A stretch of DNA of 64,000 nucleotides from a virus (lineage: Duplodnaviria > Caudoviricetes). Shown here in pieces: positions 1 through 56,697 of the stretch. The DNA lies in the IMG/VR virus record IMGVR_UViG_3300049926_000039, positions 5,804-69,803 of that record. The stretch is one strand, 5' to 3'. Within the stretch, counting starts at the first letter, position 1, and each line of letters begins with the position of its first letter. The position numbers and the translations under genes were made by a program. The notes under the pieces are model-generated. The model saw only the letters and a program-made list of their open reading frames with translations. It searched no databases and was not told where the DNA came from.

Positions 1-98
1 CGGCACCGCGTTCTGTACCACTGGACGCCGGGTCAAGACCGTTGCGCGTGGCGCCGGATCGGTGAAGGCTACTGGACTCGTTCGGCGGGGGCCGACCG

Positions 99-533
99 GT
101 GATCGAGCACGCGTACATCAACGACGACGTCCTGCTCGCGTGCGTGGACCTCGTCGGCCGGGCCGGAGCCAGCGGTTTCGAGATCGGCTATCTGCACGAG
201 GATGTACCGGTCGAGGACGCCGGCTGGTACGCGTACGCCACGTATCACGGCGCCCGGATCACCGTCGAGGATCACCGTTCGCCGACCGGCGCCGCCCTGG
301 CCTTGGCCGAGCGGCTGCTGCGCGGTGCGATGTGCCGCTGCCGGCGGCCCGTGGCGCTGTCGGACCGTGCCGACGGCTGTCGTTGGCGGCTGCTCGGCAA
401 GCGCTGGGAGCCCGGCTGCGACGCGGAGCCGCTGCACATCAAGGGCGAACGTGGCGACCACGCAGCCATTCAGCGGGCGCTCGCCCAGCCTGCCAACCGC
501 GCCGAGCGACGCGCCCGGCGGAAGGGGGCGTAG
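99..533 (+). CDS. hypothetical protein
   Basis: 144 aa ORF with GC3-biased codons and CRC/C motifs, first gene of a tightly overlapping operon. Confidence 0.6.
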   Translation: MIEHAYINDDVLLACVDLVGRAGASGFEIGYLHEDVPVEDAGWYAYATYHGARITVEDHRSPTGAALALAERLLRGAMCRCRRPVALSDRADGCRWRLLGKRWEPGCDAEPLHIKGERGDHAAIQRALAQPANRAERRARRKGA

Positions 534-536
534 ACG

Positions 537-707
537 GTGATCGAGCACGCGCACATCGGGACCGTGCCGTTCTGCGCTCAGGAGTGGATCGAACGTCCCG
601 GCCCGACCCACGGCGCGGCCGAGGTCCGGTGCCCGCACCAGCCCGAGACGCTGCGGTACATCAAAGTCAGAGACCCGCACCGCCCTTCCCCGGAGTCGTC
701 GCCGTGA
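537..707 (+). CDS. small hypothetical protein (56 aa)
   Basis: GTG start, MIEHAHI N-terminus nearly identical to the previous gene's, GTGA overlap with next gene; below ORF-track cutoff. Confidence 0.5.
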   Translation: MIEHAHIGTVPFCAQEWIERPGPTHGAAEVRCPHQPETLRYIKVRDPHRPSPESSP

Positions 708-1159
708 CCCGCGGGACCCGGTGCGCCGCGCACCGGCACGAGTATCCGACCGCCGAGGAGTACCACCACCTGCAACCCCTGTCGCGGGGCGGGAAAACCG
801 AGCAGGCCAACATGGTGTGGCTGTGCGCTAATGCCCACAGCGACGTGCACTACTTCCTCGACACGATCGAGCGCCGCGCGAGGAAGGGCGAGCGTCATCC
901 CGCGTCCGTTCCCGGCGTGACCGCGGTGCATTACGGCCCGGCGATTCGACGCCTGGCCCGGTTGGGGTGGGCGAGGTATGCCGATGATTTCCTGGCCGGA
1001 CGGCTCGACGCGCACGTGATGTTGTGGTCGTCGTCTGGTGCGCCGCGCCTGGAAATCTCCACCGACCTGACGCCGTACTCGCTCGCCGTTCGCCGTTCCG
1101 AGGCCGCTCACTGGCTGAGCGTGGCCCGGATCAAGCTCGCCCTCGAGGAGAAACCGTGA
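704..1159 (+). CDS. HNH endonuclease (possibly HK97 gp74-like packaging accessory)
   Basis: EYHHLQPLSRGGKTEQANMVWLCANAHSDVH HNH motif; start reassigned to GTG 704. Confidence 0.75.
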   Translation: MTRGTRCAAHRHEYPTAEEYHHLQPLSRGGKTEQANMVWLCANAHSDVHYFLDTIERRARKGERHPASVPGVTAVHYGPAIRRLARLGWARYADDFLAGRLDAHVMLWSSSGAPRLEISTDLTPYSLAVRRSEAAHWLSVARIKLALEEKP

Positions 1160-1338
1160 CGTACCTGCCCGCCGATCGCATGCTTACCCCCGCCGAGGTT
1201 GCCGAGATGTTCCGGGTGGATCCGAAGACCGTGACCCGATGGGCGAAGGCCGGCCGGATCAGCAGTATCCGCACCCCGGGCGGGCACCGCCGGTTCCGAG
1301 AGTCCGAGATCCGCGCGCTGTTCGACGGTGAGGCATGA
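1156..1338 (+). CDS. bldC: BldC-family MerR-like HTH developmental regulator
   Basis: LTPAEVAEMFRVDPKTVTRWAKAGRISSIRTPGGHRRFRESEIRAL closely matches Streptomyces BldC as recalled. Confidence 0.85.
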   Translation: MTYLPADRMLTPAEVAEMFRVDPKTVTRWAKAGRISSIRTPGGHRRFRESEIRALFDGEA

Positions 1339-1342
1339 CCAG

Positions 1343-1462
1343 GTGAGCGCCCCCAAGGAGCCTCCGTGGTTGTTCCGGCTGATGGGCCTCGCCATGCTGG
1401 CCGGGATTCTGATCATCGTTCCGATCATGATCTGGCTGCTGTTCTTCCGGCCGTACCCGTGA
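1343..1462 (+). CDS. small membrane protein (39 aa)
   Basis: MSAPKEPPWLFRLMGLAMLAGILIIVPIMIWLLFFRPYP, single TM helix, GTGA overlap with next gene. Confidence 0.5.
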   Translation: MSAPKEPPWLFRLMGLAMLAGILIIVPIMIWLLFFRPYP

Positions 1463-1659
1463 TCAGCCGTGCCGTCGTCGCGATGTGGTCGGCCGTGCTG
1501 GCTCTCGTCGCGCTCATGGGAGTGCAGTGGTTCGTGACCACGCCCGGGATGGTTACCGATCGGGAGTTGCACACGATGATGCTGGCGGCGATCCCCGCCA
1601 TGACCGTGGTCCTCTCGGCCTTCTGGGTCGATGCGGGACGTCGGGAGAATCGACGGTAA
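1459..1659 (+). CDS. small membrane protein
   Basis: two hydrophobic segments, GTGA coupling. Confidence 0.55.
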   Translation: MISRAVVAMWSAVLALVALMGVQWFVTTPGMVTDRELHTMMLAAIPAMTVVLSAFWVDAGRRENRR

Positions 1660-1698
1660 GTGCCGTAAGGTCAGGGGGGACCGAGCCGAGGAGTGGCC

Positions 1699-2115
1699 AT
1701 GCGAAGGATCGTCGCCACACTGAGCGCCACCGTGCTGGCCGTCGTCGCCGGACTGTCCGCCGCGACTCCCGCTCACGCCGACTTCTCTTGGTGTCCTGCG
1801 GGCAAGTTCTGCATGGCGACCAGCGAGAACGGTAACGGGACCAAGTGGTCGTACTGGGTGTCCGCCCAGAACGGCGGAGTCGAGATGGCGACCGGTCAGC
1901 GTTCGCAGGTGTCGTCGGTGTGGAACCGTACCGGTGGTAACCAGTGGATGTACCAGAACCCGACGTGCACCGGACCGGGGTCGATCTTGTTCAACCCCGG
2001 ACAGGCGTTCAATCTTGTCGGTACCTCGTGGGACAATGCCACCCGCTCGTTCTGGAATCAGGACTCCGGGGCTTCCCCACTGAACGGTGTCGACTGCTTC
2101 CACAAGAACGGATGA
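1699..2115 (+). CDS. secreted peptidase inhibitor I36 / beta-gamma-crystallin-like protein
   Basis: signal peptide (AHA-D), CPAGKFC...SSVWNRT...C...WDN pattern, RBS GAGGAG. Confidence 0.75.
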   Translation: MRRIVATLSATVLAVVAGLSAATPAHADFSWCPAGKFCMATSENGNGTKWSYWVSAQNGGVEMATGQRSQVSSVWNRTGGNQWMYQNPTCTGPGSILFNPGQAFNLVGTSWDNATRSFWNQDSGASPLNGVDCFHKNG

Positions 2116-2555
2116 CGACCATGAAGATTCGCCGCATCGTGTCCCTGCTCGCCGTATCGCTGCTCGCGTCCGTCGGCCTGGCGGTCACGGCAAGTCCCGC
2201 GCAGGCCGACTTCTCCTGGTGCCCGGCCGGTAAGTGGTGCATCGCCACGGACGTCAACGGCAACGGCAACAAGTGGAGCTACTGGGTGAGCGCGCAGGAC
2301 GGCGGCGTCGAGATGGCGTCGAGTCAGCGCTCGCAGATCAGCTCGGTGTGGAACCGCACCGCCACGACGGAGACGCTGACCGACAACCTGACGTGCACCG
2401 GCAACAAGGTGGGCATTCCGGCGGGTATCGCTACGAACCTGTCCGATGTCGGGACGGCCGCTCACACGTCGTGGGACAACATCGCCCGGTCGTTCTATAG
2501 CTCGGGTACGACCCAGCCACCGCCGGGCGGGCCCTGCAACCACCAGAACGGGTGA
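2112..2555 (+). CDS. secreted peptidase inhibitor I36-like protein (tandem paralogue)
   Basis: signal peptide AQA-D; mature N-terminus DFSWCPAGKWC nearly identical to the upstream gene. Confidence 0.75.
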   Translation: MTTMKIRRIVSLLAVSLLASVGLAVTASPAQADFSWCPAGKWCIATDVNGNGNKWSYWVSAQDGGVEMASSQRSQISSVWNRTATTETLTDNLTCTGNKVGIPAGIATNLSDVGTAAHTSWDNIARSFYSSGTTQPPPGGPCNHQNG

Positions 2556-2559
2556 CCGA

Positions 2560-3120
2560 ACGTCACAATCTCGGCCGTGGAGGTCATTCTAAGTCTCACG
2601 CGCTGTAAATAACGCCTCTGAGTGACATCCTGCAAGATCGGCCCCTGACGGGACATCGACCGTTCTGCATGGGTCGGACGGCAGGACAGAGGAACAAGGC
2701 CCTGACCAGGCATTATGCAGGCCAAAGTGGGGGATTACGCAGCGTGAGAGCCGAAAATTGCTCAGAGAAAAAGATCTTTGCGGCGCGGCGCGTTTCATGA
2801 TCGCTCGGACCTAAAAATCGGCCGTTACTCAGCGACGTTTCCGCAGGTCAGAGCCTTGATCACATTACATCTCACGCTCTGTGCATACGCTACTGTGCGT
2901 AGTGGGCCACTGTGGGCGTCGTTGTGCCCGATCGTTGACTACTAAGCGTTGAACTTCACGCGTGTAACTACATGCACGTAACTACACGCGTGTATGGCTC
3001 AACCTCAGTGCAACACGCACACCATCACGCATCATCACCTATGCACACGCACTACCCCATGCCGCGCACCCATGCATGTAGGTAGATCTGCTTAGCTCAT
3101 ACCGTAAGTGTCACAAGTAC
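2560..3120. other. AT-richer non-coding region, candidate packaging/terminus (cos-like) region
   Basis: no credible ORF, strong CA/TG strand skew (3000-3070), palindromes (TACACGCGTGTA), CCGCAGGTCAG motif, A/T runs. Confidence 0.35.
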
Positions 3121-3136
3121 TGCTAGCATCCCGACC

Positions 3137-3577
3137 ATGACCACCTTCCGCTCGGTACCCCTGACCCTCACCACTACCGCCCTCGCCCTGGCCCTGTCCG
3201 CATGCGGCACCTCACCTACCACCCCTGACCCCACCCCTGTGGGTACCCCTGCCACCTCCGCCCCTGCCGCCCCTGCGGGTACCGGTGCCAAGGCCCCCAC
3301 TCAGGGAACCCCCCGTACCAAGCCCCCCGTCAAGGCGGCCCCTGCACCCACCATCACCGAGGGCACGTGGCACGTGGGTGAGGATGTCCCCGCCGGCACG
3401 TACCGCACGGTGGATGTGGTCAGTTCGGAGGGCACCTGCTACTGGATGAAGGCCAAGGACTCGGAGGGTTCGGACATCATTGCCAACGGGGTGCCCACGG
3501 GTGGACATCCGCAGGTCACCTTGGTCAAGGGCCAGTGGTTCACCACCGAGTCATGCGGTACGTGGGTCAAGCGGTAG
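3137..3577 (+). CDS. lipoprotein
   Basis: lipobox LSA-C, Pro/Thr/Ala linker, GTWHVGEDVPAGTYRT...CYW domain; TGCTAGCAT-N7-ATG leaderless promoter. Confidence 0.8.
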   Translation: MTTFRSVPLTLTTTALALALSACGTSPTTPDPTPVGTPATSAPAAPAGTGAKAPTQGTPRTKPPVKAAPAPTITEGTWHVGEDVPAGTYRTVDVVSSEGTCYWMKAKDSEGSDIIANGVPTGGHPQVTLVKGQWFTTESCGTWVKR

Positions 3578-3869: not shown

Positions 3870-4175
3870 TCAGTCCCCGCCCATAGGGTTCTCCTCCATC
3901 GGGTCGCTGAGCACCTCGGCCCACATGATTGCCCCCGCAGCAAACAGACGGCGCCGCGACGCGAGTACCTCGATGACCATGCCCCGCTCGACCCGGGCCA
4001 CGAGGTCATCCCAGTTGCTCACGTCGCGGATGGCCAGCAGCCCGACTATCGCGGAGTCCCCGCCGTACAGGTGCAGTTTGACCAGCGTGCCCAGCCCGAA
4101 GCGGTGCGCGGCGGAGTCGGTCAGCGGATCGGGGATGTAGTCGTCGGGGTAGTGGTGCCCGTAGATCCCACTCAC
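3870..4175 (-). CDS. hypothetical protein
   Basis: 101 aa ORF coupled to upstream minus-strand gene. Confidence 0.6.
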   Translation of the reverse strand: MSGIYGHHYPDDYIPDPLTDSAAHRFGLGTLVKLHLYGGDSAIVGLLAIRDVSNWDDLVARVERGMVIEVLASRRRLFAAGAIMWAEVLSDPMEENPMGGD

Positions 4176-5815: not shown

Positions 5816-6682
5816 ATGTATCGGGTCCGCTACCTGCAGCAGATGGACACCAGGCTCGGTCGGCACGTCCACCACGATCCACGCAGTCGGGCATACCCCG
5901 TACGGCCGCGCGTCAGTGCACTGGCGTCGATCCGCCACGTCCGTCACGTCCCGGTGTTCAACCAGGGCCATATCGGCAGTTGCACCGGTCACGCCGCGGT
6001 CGGCTGCATGGGTACGGGCCTGTTCTACGGCTCGTTGGAGAACGCGTGGGTGCCGCAGTTCTTCCCGTACTCGGAGGCGGGCGCGGTGGCCTGCTACAGC
6101 CGCGCGACCGTGCTTGACTCGTATGCGGGCGACTACCCGCCGGACGACACGGGTAGCGACGGGTTGAGCGTGGCCAAGGCGCTGCAGGAGAAGGGCGAGA
6201 TCTCCGGCTACGAGCACGCGTTCGGCTTGGATCACGGCCTGCTGGGGCTCATGGAACGTCCGGCGATCGTGGGCGTGGCCTGGATGAACGACATGTTCGA
6301 CCCGGACCGGGAGGGCATCGTGCACCCGACGGGCGCACTGGCCGGCGGCCACGAGTTCGTGTGGGACGAGTACGACGCGGCCCGTGGCCTGGTCGGCTTC
6401 ACCAACTCATGGGGACTGTCGTGGGGCAAGGCGGGCCGATTCTTCATGCCCGCCGAGGAGTTCGGCGCCCTGCTCGCCCAAGACGGCGACGTGACGTCGT
6501 TCGTGCCGATCGACGACCCGGCGCCGCTGCCGATCCCAATCCCGCCGTTGCCGGGCAGGGACGATCCAGGCGACATGCTGTGGAAGCTGACGGACGCCTG
6601 GTCGGCGGGGCATCACACGGGCGGTAACAGGCACGCGGCCCACGCGGTCCGCGATTGGGCTAAGGCGACAGGGAGGCTCTGA
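5816..6682 (+). CDS. papain-like (C1) cysteine protease with small C-terminal domain
   Basis: NQGHIGSCTG (Gln oxyanion, Cys), GGHEF (His), TNSWG (Asn). Confidence 0.85.
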   Translation: MYRVRYLQQMDTRLGRHVHHDPRSRAYPVRPRVSALASIRHVRHVPVFNQGHIGSCTGHAAVGCMGTGLFYGSLENAWVPQFFPYSEAGAVACYSRATVLDSYAGDYPPDDTGSDGLSVAKALQEKGEISGYEHAFGLDHGLLGLMERPAIVGVAWMNDMFDPDREGIVHPTGALAGGHEFVWDEYDAARGLVGFTNSWGLSWGKAGRFFMPAEEFGALLAQDGDVTSFVPIDDPAPLPIPIPPLPGRDDPGDMLWKLTDAWSAGHHTGGNRHAAHAVRDWAKATGRL

Positions 6683-6884: not shown

Positions 6885-7057
6885 CCGTGGATGTCGAGTG
6901 GGTCGACGGCGAACATCGCACCTACACCGACGTAGAGGACACGTCGGTAGGCACCGAGGTTCTACGCCTGTACGGGTACGTGATCGGCGGCCGTCGAGAA
7001 GTGATCGCCAACCTGCCGCTCTTCCACGTCCGCGAGTGGAAGGTATCCGGCCGATGA
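6881..7057 (+). CDS. hypothetical protein
   Basis: 58 aa, ATGA overlaps. Confidence 0.55.
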   Translation: MTVDVEWVDGEHRTYTDVEDTSVGTEVLRLYGYVIGGRREVIANLPLFHVREWKVSGR

Positions 7058-7335
7058 CCGACCCCGAGGCGCCCGGGGTGATGCTCTCGGCGGTCAACCG
7101 GGACCTCGAATCCATCAAGGTGAGCGAGGTCCCAGGCGGTTTCACGTATGCGGCCATCGCCGTCTATCTGGCCGGCGTGATCGACAAACGTGGGGCCGAT
7201 GATGGACCCTCTGTAACAGCACGCTTGGCCGATCAGCTAGGTAAGGCCATGGCAGCGCTCACCAGGAAGGGCGGCGACAGTGGCGACTCGTTCGACGCCT
7301 TCACCGAATCCATCTCCGAACCGATCCGTGAGTGA
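7054..7335 (+). CDS. probable terminase small subunit
   Basis: 93 aa helical protein just upstream of terL; synteny only. Confidence 0.5.
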   Translation: MTDPEAPGVMLSAVNRDLESIKVSEVPGGFTYAAIAVYLAGVIDKRGADDGPSVTARLADQLGKAMAALTRKGGDSGDSFDAFTESISEPIRE

Positions 7336-35164: not shown

Positions 35165-37345
35165 TCACGCACCGTGCGTGCGCGGGCCCGCGATGTACGT
35201 GAGCAGGTAGTGCCCGCGCACGCCGTCCCGCTCGATCGTGAGCCCCGGAGGCGAGACGAACTTGCCCTCATCGCACAGTCCCGTGAACCGCTTCGAGATC
35301 CACGACTCGGACGGCTGGACGACCATCTCGGCCACCACGTCCGCGTTCGTGAACCGCATGACCTTGCGCTCGGCCATCCTGACCAGCGCGGCGTCGAACT
35401 CGGCCACCGCGTGCTCGGGCGACGACGGGCGGGGCTTCAGTCCCGGGCCGTCCAACTCGATGTTCTGGCCGTCACCGAGCGGCTCGACCGGCTCGCGCGG
35501 GTCGCCGTACTCGGCGCGTTCCTCCGCTGTGGGCGCGGCCGGAGCATCCGGGTCCAAGTCTTCGCCCAGGTCGTCGCCGTCGAGCTCCATCGTTTGCTGC
35601 ATGTCGGTCCCTTCGCTTGCGTTTGCGCTGGTCACGGTCGTGACAGCGGGCTCTGCGTCGTCCTCGCCCTTCGCGCCGAACATGACCGCGGACGGGCGGC
35701 ACAGGTTCCACACGGGGCCGAGCACGCTGATCTCCTCATCGGTGAAGGTCGCCGGCGTGAACGTGGTCCGCGCCTTGAGCACCGCCTCGCGAAGGTCGCC
35801 GTAGTCCTCGCGGGTCTCGTAGGTGCGGCAGTCGATCGGGTACCGGGTCGGGTCCACCCCCGGCGCCTTGTCGAGGTAGTGGGCGCCCGGGACGCTGGCC
35901 GCGAACTGTTCGGCGTTGGCGCCCGCCTCGCGGGTCTCGTCCGAGATGACGAACGCCGAGTCATAGTCCTGCGTGATCCCGAACTGCTTCCACGCGCCGA
36001 CCGCCGCGCGGACGTCGGTGGACAGCGCCGTACCGACCGCGCGGGGCAGGGTGATCGACAGGCGGAAGCCGAGCGAACGGCCCTTGGTGGCCAGCCACTC
36101 GAAGTTCGCGCCCTCCTTCACGATGTCGAACTCGTCCGCGAAGATGTAGATGAACGGCATGCCCGTCGTGTACGCGGCGGCGGCGTTGAAATTGCGGTAT
36201 CCGCTCAGCGCGTCCGCCCGGTATTTGCCAAGCCTGCGCAACGCAGCGAAGAGCGCGAGCGACTGCGCACGCGAAGCCGAGGCGAGCGTGCACATGTCCA
36301 GGCACCATCCTGCGTTCTGCATGATCTTCGCTTGGTCGATGTAGATGGCGACGACATCGGTTCGCGAAAGAACCTCCGCGATCTCGATCGCCGCGTCGCC
36401 CGACTTCCCCGAACCGGTCATGCCCTGTCGACCGAGGAACACGTCGTTCGGGGAGCGAAACTTCGGTGCGACCCGGGAGCGAAGTTCGTCTGGGGTTCGC
36501 GCGAAGGAGAACCACTGCGGCGCCCCGTCGGAGTAGTACGCGGTGCGAATCGGCGCAGCGAAGCTTTCGCCCGGGTGAGACAACCCCGGCCACGGGCGCC
36601 ACGTCTTGTGCGGGTCGGTGTGCACGAGGCGAATCTGCGAGGTCCCGCCGCGTTCGGCGGGCACGATCGAACTTCGCCCGCGAATGATTCCGGGGTTCTC
36701 CTCCAGCGCGGGCAACGCACTTCGCAGTTGCGAGATCGGTACGCCCGTATGGTCGATGGTCGCGGTCACCGCGAACTCGTCGCCGTCGATAGTGTTCGCG
36801 CGGATGCGTGCGCCCTTCGGCCACTTCAGCAGGTCCGCCAGGCCGCCGCCCTCTTCGCCCGAGCTGGTCGCCGCGCGGAACGCGTCGATGCGGTAGAGCA
36901 GCCACGTCCCCGCGAAGAAGATCGAGCACAGCAGGTAGATCACCGCAGCGGACGCGGGGACCGTGAACACGTCCGCGATCCGGTTCCACCAGTGCGGCCC
37001 AGTCCGGTGCCAGCCGAGGATTACGCCGATCGAGACGGCCACCGCGAACGCCTCGATGGTGAGCGCGACGTGCCAGATCACGAACGGGATCCGCTTGGTC
37101 ACCTTGTGGCCGATGCCCAGCGCCACCCCGGGGCCGACCGTGCCGAACAGGAACAGCGACAGCCAGACCATCATCCACTTCAGTTCGGGGCTGAAGAACA
37201 GGAAGAACCGCAGCACGATGACCAGGGCGGGGACGCCGAACAGGGCCGTGAGCAGCACCGATAGGAACGGCTGTGCCCGGTCGTCGGGCTCCCGCTTGCG
37301 GGGGTTCCGCTCGCTGGTGACGTTGACGTTCGATGTCCGGCTCAC
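35165..37345 (-). CDS. traB: TraB-family FtsK/SpoIIIE conjugative DNA translocase
   Basis: N-terminal TM helices, Walker A GMTGSGKS, Walker B IFADE, C-terminal winged helix (SESWISKRFTGLCDEG...GHYLL). Confidence 0.85.
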   Translation of the reverse strand: MSRTSNVNVTSERNPRKREPDDRAQPFLSVLLTALFGVPALVIVLRFFLFFSPELKWMMVWLSLFLFGTVGPGVALGIGHKVTKRIPFVIWHVALTIEAFAVAVSIGVILGWHRTGPHWWNRIADVFTVPASAAVIYLLCSIFFAGTWLLYRIDAFRAATSSGEEGGGLADLLKWPKGARIRANTIDGDEFAVTATIDHTGVPISQLRSALPALEENPGIIRGRSSIVPAERGGTSQIRLVHTDPHKTWRPWPGLSHPGESFAAPIRTAYYSDGAPQWFSFARTPDELRSRVAPKFRSPNDVFLGRQGMTGSGKSGDAAIEIAEVLSRTDVVAIYIDQAKIMQNAGWCLDMCTLASASRAQSLALFAALRRLGKYRADALSGYRNFNAAAAYTTGMPFIYIFADEFDIVKEGANFEWLATKGRSLGFRLSITLPRAVGTALSTDVRAAVGAWKQFGITQDYDSAFVISDETREAGANAEQFAASVPGAHYLDKAPGVDPTRYPIDCRTYETREDYGDLREAVLKARTTFTPATFTDEEISVLGPVWNLCRPSAVMFGAKGEDDAEPAVTTVTSANASEGTDMQQTMELDGDDLGEDLDPDAPAAPTAEERAEYGDPREPVEPLGDGQNIELDGPGLKPRPSSPEHAVAEFDAALVRMAERKVMRFTNADVVAEMVVQPSESWISKRFTGLCDEGKFVSPPGLTIERDGVRGHYLLTYIAGPRTHGA

Positions 37346-38439
37346 GTGCTCACCCCTACCTCTGGCGCAGCGCCGTTGACGTGCTGGTCGGGGGCGGCCG
37401 GCGGGGTGAATTCGCCCAGCGTCAGCCCGTGCCGCCTGCGGTAGTCCTTAACCCATAGCTCAATGGAGCGCTTCGACTTGCCTACCTCCTTGGCGAGGTC
37501 GGCGGCACGCTCACCACCCTCGACCACCCTGCGGGCGAAGACGTCACGGCGGTCCCGATCTCCGTCCTTACTGCCCCGTTCCGGGAAGTTTGGGCGGGAA
37601 TCTCGCGGCGGTGGGGCCGACGCCACGTCTACAGACGGCGGGCGGATCTCCGCCTTAACGCCGCGGGGCATGGGGGCACGCCGTTGCGGCTTCAGCCCGC
37701 CGATTAGCCGACGGTTGTAAATCGGATGCTCAGCGTCGACCAGCACGCGCTCAGCGATCAGGGCATCATCGAGAGTCGGGTACGGCTCGAAAGTCCAGCG
37801 CACGACCAGGGGGAACCACTCTGTTGACTGCGCTTTGTGGGACCGCACGCGCGCGGGAAAGTCGGCAGTCGAACCGATGTACAGCGGCGGGATGGGGTCC
37901 TCCCCGAGCGCGCGGTAGACGCCAGGCTGCCTCGCGCCGAGATCCAGATCGACCGGGACCCCTGCCGCAACGCTCGCCTCCGCCACGACCTCCACCGGGT
38001 CCGGCTGGATCGACCGCCGTCGCCGCTTCAGCTCGAAGAGGCACATCGACGTGACAACAATCAGGCCGTCCACCGACAGCGGGAGGAGGTGCGAATACTC
38101 TTCGCCGTACCGCGAAGCGACGGCCGTCATATGCCAGTACGAAACCCAGGCAGCGACCGCCCCGACGACGCCCGCAGCAACGTAGCGAATCGCCGAGGCG
38201 AGCGAACGGCCGGCGGGCATGTACGACAGGAACTCGACCACAGCGAAGAACGCAAGCGGTGCCCAGGCGGCAATGACCCTGCCCACGAGCGAAGGTTGGG
38301 CGTGCATCGCGTTCGCGAAGACGGACGCCGCGACGCCCGCCGCCAGGCCGAAGCGAACCGCCCAGACGAGGGCGCCACGGGGGGACGCGGCCCCGCCGAT
38401 CTTCGCATCTACAAGCTTCGCTTCGCTCCTGGTCTTCAT
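37342..38439 (-). CDS. DUF2637 (SpdA-like) membrane domain + GIY-YIG + HTH fusion
   Basis: VAASVFANAMHA...AWVSYWHM...LPLSVDGLIVV; GVY...LYIGST...RVRSH...IAE...PIYN; C-terminal AADLAKEVGKSKRSIELW. Confidence 0.75.
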   Translation of the reverse strand: MKTRSEAKLVDAKIGGAASPRGALVWAVRFGLAAGVAASVFANAMHAQPSLVGRVIAAWAPLAFFAVVEFLSYMPAGRSLASAIRYVAAGVVGAVAAWVSYWHMTAVASRYGEEYSHLLPLSVDGLIVVTSMCLFELKRRRRSIQPDPVEVVAEASVAAGVPVDLDLGARQPGVYRALGEDPIPPLYIGSTADFPARVRSHKAQSTEWFPLVVRWTFEPYPTLDDALIAERVLVDAEHPIYNRRLIGGLKPQRRAPMPRGVKAEIRPPSVDVASAPPPRDSRPNFPERGSKDGDRDRRDVFARRVVEGGERAADLAKEVGKSKRSIELWVKDYRRRHGLTLGEFTPPAAPDQHVNGAAPEVGVST

Positions 38440-38508
38440 GGTTTCGCAGAGTACAGGAGGCACGCGACTTGCGCGACTAACGACACTTGGTATGGCAAGA
38501 TGGTTCGC

Positions 38509-38778
38509 ATGAGCAGCGAAGCGAAGGACGCGGCCCCCGAACCCCGCGAAACGATGACGACCGAGCAGGCAGCGAAGATCCTCGACACGTCGCGTGCGAC
38601 GGTGATCCGTCTCTGCGAAGCGGGGGCCATCGAGCACCGGTGGACTTCGCCCGGGACCGGCCGCGAAGATCGCAACGGGCATCCGCTTCGCGGTCACCGC
38701 CGTCTGTACGCGGATTCGGTGCGCGCGTACGCGGGTCAGCGGGACGCTCCGACGACCCCCGAAGATTCGTCCGCCTGA
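38509..38778 (+). CDS. excisionase/BldC-like HTH regulator, divergent from transfer operon
   Basis: MTTEQAAKILDTSRATVIRLCEAG...GHRRLYADSV. Confidence 0.75.
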   Translation: MSSEAKDAAPEPRETMTTEQAAKILDTSRATVIRLCEAGAIEHRWTSPGTGREDRNGHPLRGHRRLYADSVRAYAGQRDAPTTPEDSSA

Positions 38779-38811
38779 CACCCTTGACACTTAACCGATT
38801 TCGGTTAACGT
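38776..38811 (+). promoter_or_regulatory. repeated early promoter with palindromic operator (copy 1)
   Basis: TTGACA-N16-TAACGT overlapping TTAACCGATTTCGGTTAA. Confidence 0.8.
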
Positions 38812-49333: not shown

Positions 49334-49923
49334 ATGACCAAGATCCCACTACCGACCAGCAGTGAACGTGCCCTCGCCCAGGCCGAAGCCGCCGCAGACC
49401 GACGAGTAGCCGTCCCGCAGGAGTACTACACGGCCGAGCAGATCGGCGAGGGCGTCTGGGTGGCGCTGGCCGCCTGCCGCGACGAGGACCCCGAACTCTT
49501 CCACCCCATCGACGGCTCGCCCGTCGCCGTGGCCCTCGCCCAGACCATCTGCGCCGGATGCCCCCGTCACCCGAGCCTGCCGCGCCTACCGCTACGCCCA
49601 TCGGCGCGTCCGGGGTGTGGGGCGGCGTCTACTACGCGACCCACTCCGCCGGCGTCCGCAACGCCCGCATGAAGTGCGCCCTCATGAAGTGCCTGAACGG
49701 GGTACGCCGCACCAACCCGTATTGCTCGTTCGCCTGCGAGCACAAAGCCAAGGCCGGAACCGACGCCGGGTACCGGATGCACCTGGACGAGATCAGCCGC
49801 CTGCGCAAGGCGGGACAGGACGTACCCGACGCTGTGAAGATCTGTCCGCCGTGCGCCGCGGCGAAGGAAGCCCGCTCCCGGCAACGCATGCCCAACCGGC
49901 CAGACCTGCGGGTCGACGCCTAA
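49334..49923 (+). pseudogene. whiB: WhiB-family regulator interrupted by two apparent 1-bp C insertions
   Basis: AACRDEDPELFHP...ICAGC in one frame, GVWGG in another; removing one C near 49561-49565 and one near 49589-49590 restores CAGCPVTRACRAYATPIGASGVWGG. Confidence 0.75.
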
Positions 49924-56442: not shown

Positions 56443-56697
56443 ATGGACGTGCAGATAGAGGCCGAGACGCCCGACCCTATGGGCGCTTATCCGCCGTACA
56501 TGTCGCCGGCCCAGGTCGCCGAATGTATCGGCGTAGACGAGAAGCAACTGAGCCAGTGGCGATATCTGAAGATCGGGCCACCGTACGTCAAACTCGTCCC
56601 CGGGCGAAGCGGTACGGTCCGGTACTCACGGGAGGACGTCCGGTCATTCATGGCGGCACGAGTCGTCGACTGTGACCCTCGGGCGGTGACCGGATGA
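56443..56697 (+). CDS. AlpA/excisionase-like HTH protein
   Basis: MSPAQVAECIGVDEKQLSQWRYLKIGPPYVK...VRYSREDV. Confidence 0.8.
   Translation: MDVQIEAETPDPMGAYPPYMSPAQVAECIGVDEKQLSQWRYLKIGPPYVKLVPGRSGTVRYSREDVRSFMAARVVDCDPRAVTG

Follow-up and report, generated by a model that had tools for sequence, protein, structure and literature searches.

The tailed phage analysed here, which infects filamentous actinomycetes, carries a small gene whose 60-aa product belongs, judging by profile scores and a predicted fold, to the BldC family, named after the small host protein that sets the timing of sporulation. The gene is a member of this family and not the host orthologue: it is flanked by HNH, lysis and terminase genes and lies outside the conserved chromosomal bldC neighbourhood. 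We tentatively favour, as the best of the readings weighed below, an accessory (moron-like) gene whose product is a host-directed mimic or competitor of BldC. This reading and one in which the protein acts on the phage's own DNA are not mutually exclusive.

The window, i.e., the whole 64,000-nt stretch analysed, comprises bases 5804-69803 of a 69.8-kb IMG/VR record rated 100% complete by CheckV. The gene and its surroundings are arranged as follows.

707..1159, + strand: HNH endonuclease gene, start approximate (Pfam PF01844 and PHROG HNH families)
1146..1149, + strand: Shine-Dalgarno sequence GGAG, 6 nt before the GTG start of the BldC-like gene (read from the sequence)
1156..1338, + strand: BldC-family gene (P0001), 60 aa, a single winged helix-turn-helix (translation, third-position GC, family matches)
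1370..1462 (start uncertain, 1328 or 1370), + strand: ORF for a small hydrophobic peptide directly 3' of the BldC-like gene (ORF list, frame plot)
1459..1659, + strand: 66-aa ORF with two hydrophobic stretches judged by eye, coupled to the preceding ORF by a GTGA overlap
1693..2555 (1693-2115 and about 2112-2555), + strand: two tandem secreted I36-inhibitor-like paralogues (Pfam PF03995)
2556..3136, no strand: 570-bp non-coding gap with the lowest GC near the BldC-like gene (frame plot, sequence, repeats)
3137..3577, + strand: lipoprotein-like ORF closing the variable island (ORF list; weak PHROG "moron/membrane protein" match)

The translation of 1156-1338 (+) contains, letter for letter, the core that the first-pass annotation had quoted for its 60-aa protein. 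Third-position GC in this frame peaks across 1140-1260, and the GTG start shares the sequence GTGA with the stop codon of the HNH ORF before it, which represents translational coupling. An internal ATG is used as the start in one public gene call (52-aa form, P0002), and no ribosome-binding site precedes that codon. The hydrophobic ORF at 1370..1462 has no family match and the 66-aa ORF no PHROG match, no close relatives of the HNH gene were found in IMG/VR, and a scan of positions 1-3300 detected no promoters or terminators.

Against the NCBIfam model of the BldC family (NF033787, curated cut-off 77 bits), the phage protein scores 105.9 bits, like the cellular controls (105.8 bits for a second paralogue, termed here type A, and 108.9 bits for canonical type B). 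The proteins of cultured phages score 51.7 bits (Obliviate Xis, Gordonia), 44 bits (AGM16 Xis, Brevibacterium) and 64 bits (Biscayne MerR-like protein, Microbacterium), and the phage's own second HTH_17 protein (56443-56697) does not match the model. Grouping with ordinary phage excisionase-like HTHs would have refuted the first-pass annotation, and the protein does not group with them, either in the scores (105.9 versus 44-64 bits) or in a phylogeny of the kind proposed there, where all BldC-family rows split from the cultured-phage Xis and MerR-like controls with SH-aLRT 92. Pfam assigns the protein to HTH_17 and MerR, and its generic matches include the TIGR01764 "excise" domain (39 bits) and phrog_66, "excisionase and transcriptional regulator".

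The structural comparison leads to the same family. In a phmmer search of PDB sequences, BldC (6AMA/6AMK) is matched at E 2e-23 and the next entry at 1e-8. The AlphaFold model, based on 81 sequences, has a mean pLDDT of 93 and predicts a strand followed by two helices, a wing of two strands and one more helix; the PDB entries closest to it are the BldC chains 6AMA/6AMK (TM 0.90-0.93 by target, rmsd 0.5-1.3 Å, 71-76% identity), followed by RacA, SoxR and Pukovnik Xis (TM 0.6-0.7). The phage protein is a MerR-like winged HTH alone, with neither a coiled coil nor an effector domain, and in this respect, as well as in size, it resembles the single-domain BldC of Streptomyces coelicolor and S. venezuelae (SCO4091; 6AMA, 6AMK).

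The likeness extends to the residues that touch DNA. Schumacher et al. listed A15, D24, K26, T27, T29, R30, W31, K33, H46, R47 and R48 as DNA-contact residues of BldC (PMC5859096), and in the phmmer alignment to 6AMA all 11 are identical in the phage protein (BldC residue number = phage residue number + 2), as is the whole recognition helix. Across 80 homologues from viral contigs, the equivalents of K26, R30, W31 and R48 are invariant, and that of H46 is kept in more than 90%. In the head-to-tail interface set (F21, R22, V23, W31, L11, E16, I40, T42, L43 and G44), eight of ten residues are identical; the two changes are L11M and L43P. Proline at position 43 is the normal residue of the cellular type A paralogue, and the L43M variant of BldC was shown to bind DNA normally (PMC5859096). 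On these residue identities, the phage protein can probably bind the same DNA sites as host BldC.

The term "near-copy", which the first-pass annotation had applied to the protein, is nevertheless too strong, since the protein is ~78-84% identical to cellular proteins and is a mosaic of two paralogue types. The Streptomyces BldC core given there does agree with the PDB sequence, and 38 of the 46 quoted residues recur in the phage protein. Overall identity to Streptomyces BldC is ~78-83%, about one core position in five being different, whereas the Streptomyces protein itself is the same in 91% of 929 complete Streptomyces genomes (PMC13118837). The two proteins share the recognition helix, the DNA contacts, most residues of the head-to-tail interface, the level of the model score and the fold (TM about 0.9), while the phage protein differs in being phage-borne, in its core identity of about 78%, in L43P and L11M, and in its shorter N- and C-terminal tails.

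Cellular homologues fall into two types, the canonical BldC (type B) and the second paralogue (type A). Type A has a different, Pro-containing wing and a different C-terminal helix, Ala replacing Lys33, and often a long Gly/Pro-rich C-terminal tail. It occurs in Micromonosporaceae, Streptosporangiales, Frankiales and others, and Dactylosporangium, Sphaerimonospora and Micromonospora have one gene of each type per genome. Many actinomycetes other than Streptomyces carry two BldC-family genes (cellular loci L083-L162 and L177-L179), and each type has its own chromosomal neighbourhood conserved across genera. No report of a function for type A was found.

The phage protein combines the HTH of type B with a type A wing. 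Its identity over 49 core columns amounts to 84% with the type A reference row and to 78% with the type B row; over all cellular rows, the ranges are 80-84% for type A, the highest cellular core identity, and 78-82% for type B. Its wing and C-terminal helix are near-identical to those of type A, which differs from it by Ala in place of the phosphate-contacting Lys33 shared by the phage protein and canonical BldC, by long C-terminal tails and by conserved chromosomal synteny. In a maximum-likelihood tree built on the same 49 columns, which is poorly resolved, the phage protein takes a basal position in the type B clade (92). This tree intermixes viral and cellular rows, with at least 13 label changes, which suggests repeated exchange and not a single capture.

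To judge how widespread such genes are, two collections of viral sequences can be compared. Among 50,697 deposited phage records (INPHARED), the highest identity is 61%, to a protein of an unverified faecal scaffold, and all matches from cultured phages are below 50% identity. Relatives with 57-82% identity are encoded on 127 IMG/VR contigs, and 79 of 80 relatives taken from these contigs match NF033787 at the E-value equivalent to the 77-bit cut-off. With the cellular loci serving as the positive control, no flanking gene of a cellular bldC-family locus recurs beside any of the 80 viral genes; these are independent mobile copies. The neighbours of the viral genes are diverse (YqaJ/RecT, RNase T-type exonuclease, TROVE and others), and the window shows no synteny with other BldC-carrying viral contigs. 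Proteins scoring as BldC-family members are frequent on viral contigs from soil (at least 79 contigs, with unrelated surroundings), and no feature sets the window gene apart from the other phage copies.

Some of the viral proteins are fused to additional parts. Those of L012 and L014 (about 6001-6429) have an extra C-terminal region of about 80 aa, that of L056 (5992-6468) has a second wHTH in tandem, and those of L027 and L036 are extended at the C-terminus by a Cys-rich part. We found no published work on phage BldC homologues, functional studies included. In the literature, Bush et al. reported that some BldC-family members are annotated as integrase-associated (PMC6428758), and according to Sharma et al. 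small MerR/HTH_17 (MerR-type) regulators occur in more than 10% of actinophages (PMC8612146).

The record represents an uncultured, integrase-less siphovirus of about 70 kb. It encodes the large terminase, portal, a fused S78/ClpP prohead protease, the major capsid protein, the tape measure protein and a GH25 lysin, together with replication and recombination proteins (ERF, DnaB, beta clamp, methylase and endonuclease VII). No match to tyrosine or serine integrases (PF00589, PF00239) was found in the 69.8 kb. Many metagenomic contigs of 62-72 kb encode relatives of the capsid protein, consistent with a free phage lineage. The first-pass description of the gene as phage-encoded is thereby upheld: the record is a real tailed phage, and the gene lies inside it, coupled to a phage HNH gene. 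Contamination by a host flank is ruled out by this coupling, by the lysis genes upstream and the terminase downstream, and by the lack of synteny with cellular loci.

The C-terminal, wall-binding part of the lysin has named cellular matches only from Micromonosporaceae of the Actinoplanes group, and these matches suggest that this group is the probable host range. Streptomyces, the genus from which the first-pass comparison was drawn, is not supported as the host by the same matches.

The BldC-like gene sits between the lysis/HNH genes and the terminase. The order runs from the lysin and a putative membrane protein through small ORFs, the HNH gene, the BldC-like gene and the two small hydrophobic ORFs to the two I36-like paralogues, the 570-bp gap, the lipoprotein, further I36-like genes, a peptidase, a 93-aa ORF and the large terminase. 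Searches of IMG/VR and metagenomes with the terminase yielded short fragments of related phages. These fragments, with terminase identities of 66-78%, keep the backbone from the ORF at 3870-4175 to the terminase, including the 93-aa ORF. None of the HNH, BldC-like, I36 and lipoprotein genes was found in the 1.7-2.8 kb available upstream in these fragments, three of which reach that far. As the gene is not seen in this available upstream sequence, we place it in a variable accessory island. At the island position, one relative (L164, 271-1901) has genes for a PadR regulator, for a protein with DUF397 and for a PIG-L-type deacetylase; DUF397 is the domain of BldB paralogues (PMC10294661).

A WhiB-like ORF at 49334-49672 matches the Pfam Whib model over its first 35 positions only (28.4 bits, 49457-49564), and a GVWGG motif typical of WhiB C-termini is found in the overlapping frame 49558-49923; a frameshift or sequencing error may lie in the region 49334-49923, or the gene may be split. 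The second, ordinary HTH_17 protein mentioned above (56443-56697, 84 aa) is encoded in the early region between the beta-clamp and DnaB genes and is 31% identical to the BldC-like protein. A further HTH_17 match at 38554-38664 (+) lies inside an ORF with DUF2637 at 37342-38790 (-), and the third-position GC filter called neither strand there. At 35165-37345 (-), a 726-aa TraB/FtsK-like membrane ATPase is encoded, which has hydrophobic segments near its N-terminus as well as Walker A and B motifs; it has no Pfam match at E 0.001, and its PHROG match is only to a family of unknown function.

The main competitor of the host-directed reading, and a quite possible one to which we give the second place, is that the protein regulates or shapes the phage's own DNA: cooperative binding to repeats would time phage transcription, as D29 Gp36 and proteins of the Xis/Apl type do, and the host would be affected only incidentally. 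It gains from the frequency of small MerR/HTH_17 proteins in actinophages (PMC8612146) and from D29 Gp36, which has a BldC-like fold and controls phage genes via direct repeats (PMC12266134). Like the window protein, D29/L5 Gp36, Pukovnik Xis and Obliviate gp39 are small phage winged HTHs; these three bind direct repeats cooperatively, and Pukovnik Xis shares the fold at a TM of about 0.7 (PMC12266134). The abundance of IMG/VR homologues passing the BldC cut-off (at least 79 of 80), several of them at early recombination modules, also agrees with a phage regulator. However, phage wHTH regulators and RDFs of the HTH_17/MerR-like kind differ from the window protein in their identity (23-50%), in scores below the BldC cut-off (44-64 bits) and in their location, which is usually beside an integrase or repressor or in early operons.

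If the phage's own DNA were the target, the 570-bp gap or other promoters could be the site of action; in the gap, a repeat-rich, relatively AT-rich non-coding region lies 1.2 kb downstream of the gene. The gap (2556-3136) may have a regulatory function or be an origin or cos site, and it is a candidate target of the BldC-like protein. It contains three tandem 14-bp units at 2952-2994 (AACTNCACGCGTGTA-like, partly palindromic), boxes of the form TCTCACGC(G/T)CTGT at 2594 and 2870, and an inverted copy at 2735-2749. The 14-bp period of the gap repeats nevertheless does not correspond to the 9-11 bp of BldC filaments.

No BldC-type phased sites were found anywhere in the record. There are no paired WATTN4C sites at 9-12 bp spacing and no chains of three or more WTTN4C sites, the latter search having little power because shuffled controls also gave none; TGTCCGAWTT boxes number 5 versus 3.5 expected, i.e., without an excess, and only one 40-nt window has a GC content of 35% or less. 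BldC operator arrays in the phage DNA were rejected on these grounds. BldC reads DNA largely through its shape, so that unrecognised sites may exist in the phage, for example in the 570-bp gap, a point that counts against the host-directed reading. Action on the phage's own DNA is further weakened by a recognition helix unchanged from host BldC, at variance with the phage-specific regulators that score 44-64 bits, and by the gene not being found upstream, as far as sequence is available, in close relatives that share the backbone. In addition, the early region encodes a separate HTH_17 protein (56443-56697), and this is a likelier candidate than the BldC-like protein for the phage's own early wHTH regulator.

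A role in packaging together with the HNH protein and the terminase, where the wHTH would recognise cos or pac as does the MerR-like N-terminal domain of lambda Nu1, appears very unlikely. It would account for the translational coupling to the HNH gene, for weak matches to small terminases (phrog_57, E 4e-6; PDB 7LWR, E 0.03) and for the lack of a recognised small terminase in the record. A parallel exists in the 17.5-kb Microbacterium phage Biscayne (L182, genes 24-25), where a MerR-like wHTH gene also stands beside an HNH gene, at the genome end and in the reversed gene order. Yet the ORF directly upstream of the large terminase is the 93-aa one (7054-7335), conserved there in six relatives, and it is the conservation of this ORF and not of the BldC-like gene that makes a packaging role unlikely. 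The fragments of these six relatives contain no BldC-like or HNH homologue, three of them reaching 1.7-2.8 kb beyond the island boundary; the BldC-like gene is 6 kb upstream of the large terminase, and 60 aa leave no room for an oligomerisation domain. As a small terminase the protein was rejected, the terminase-adjacent slot being taken by the 93-aa ORF; since this ORF has no PHROG match, the reading keeps a low probability.

An excisionase or recombination directionality factor is the least probable of the named functions and is disfavoured despite the matches to TIGR01764 "excise" (39 bits) and phrog_66 and despite the closest cultured-phage relatives being annotated as Xis next to an integrase and a repressor, since the record, rated complete, has no tyrosine or serine recombinase and the gene lies outside any immunity or integration cassette. 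The probability left over belongs to a gene with no selected function or to something unforeseen.

We return to the reading that we tentatively prefer, a host-directed mimic or competitor of BldC. It is supported by the family score, the sequence and fold matches to BldC, the identical DNA-contact residues and mostly kept interface residues, the lack of an integrase, the dispensability suggested by the island placement, the lack of arrays in the phage's own DNA, the WhiB-like ORF and the separate early HTH_17 protein. Like BldC, the phage protein would assemble head-to-tail on AT-rich/YpG direct repeats, and its main targets would be host promoters of the BldC regulon, as suggested by the lack of arrays in the phage DNA combined with a recognition helix identical to that of host BldC. 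With this helix unchanged and the wing matching a host paralogue, the expressed protein should occupy the types of sites used by the host BldC family. At the regulon promoters, it would add to or compete with the host's two BldC-family proteins, and the expression of developmental or physiological genes would be shifted during infection or carriage. A precedent is provided by the WhiB protein of phage TM4, which acts on host whiB2 (PMC8612146); the WhiB and Lsr2 copies of actinophages represent the same concept of a carried host regulator while belonging to different protein families (PMC8612146).

Further points count against action on the host. The divergence of ~20% from near-invariant host proteins suggests altered constraints. 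The coupling to the HNH gene beside lysis and packaging genes hints at late expression, a phase in which the development of the host is of minor importance, and co-transcription with this late-looking gene does not favour an early developmental role. Finally, other viral contigs place BldC-family genes by YqaJ/RecT or exonuclease early modules, a location typical of phage regulators, and D29 Gp36 is a precedent for a role directed at the phage itself (PMC12266134).

Whether a developmental effect would be a brake or an activation cannot be predicted. In S. venezuelae, BldC delays development (PMC6428758), while in A. missouriensis it is described in PMC11960193, citing Tezuka 2022, as a global activator needed for mature sporangia and not as a brake on sporulation. 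A more specific version, in which the phage protein, with its DNA-reading part and most of its interface kept, joins or caps host BldC-family filaments at developmental promoters and re-times the formation of sporangia or spores, keeping hyphae permissive for phage replication or for virion-independent spread by the TraB-like pump, seems to us doubtful. The proposal of the first-pass annotation that the host is held in vegetative growth to favour TraB-mediated spread is pure conjecture, as nothing links the TraB-like and BldC-like genes.

Should the joining or capping of host filaments prove true, a virus would have taken control of a developmental checkpoint of its bacterial host through molecular mimicry. 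If a phage BldC acted on host development, it would be the third borrowed regulator in actinophages, after WhiB and Lsr2. Since the DNA-binding mechanism of BldC is known at atomic detail, this idea is directly testable.
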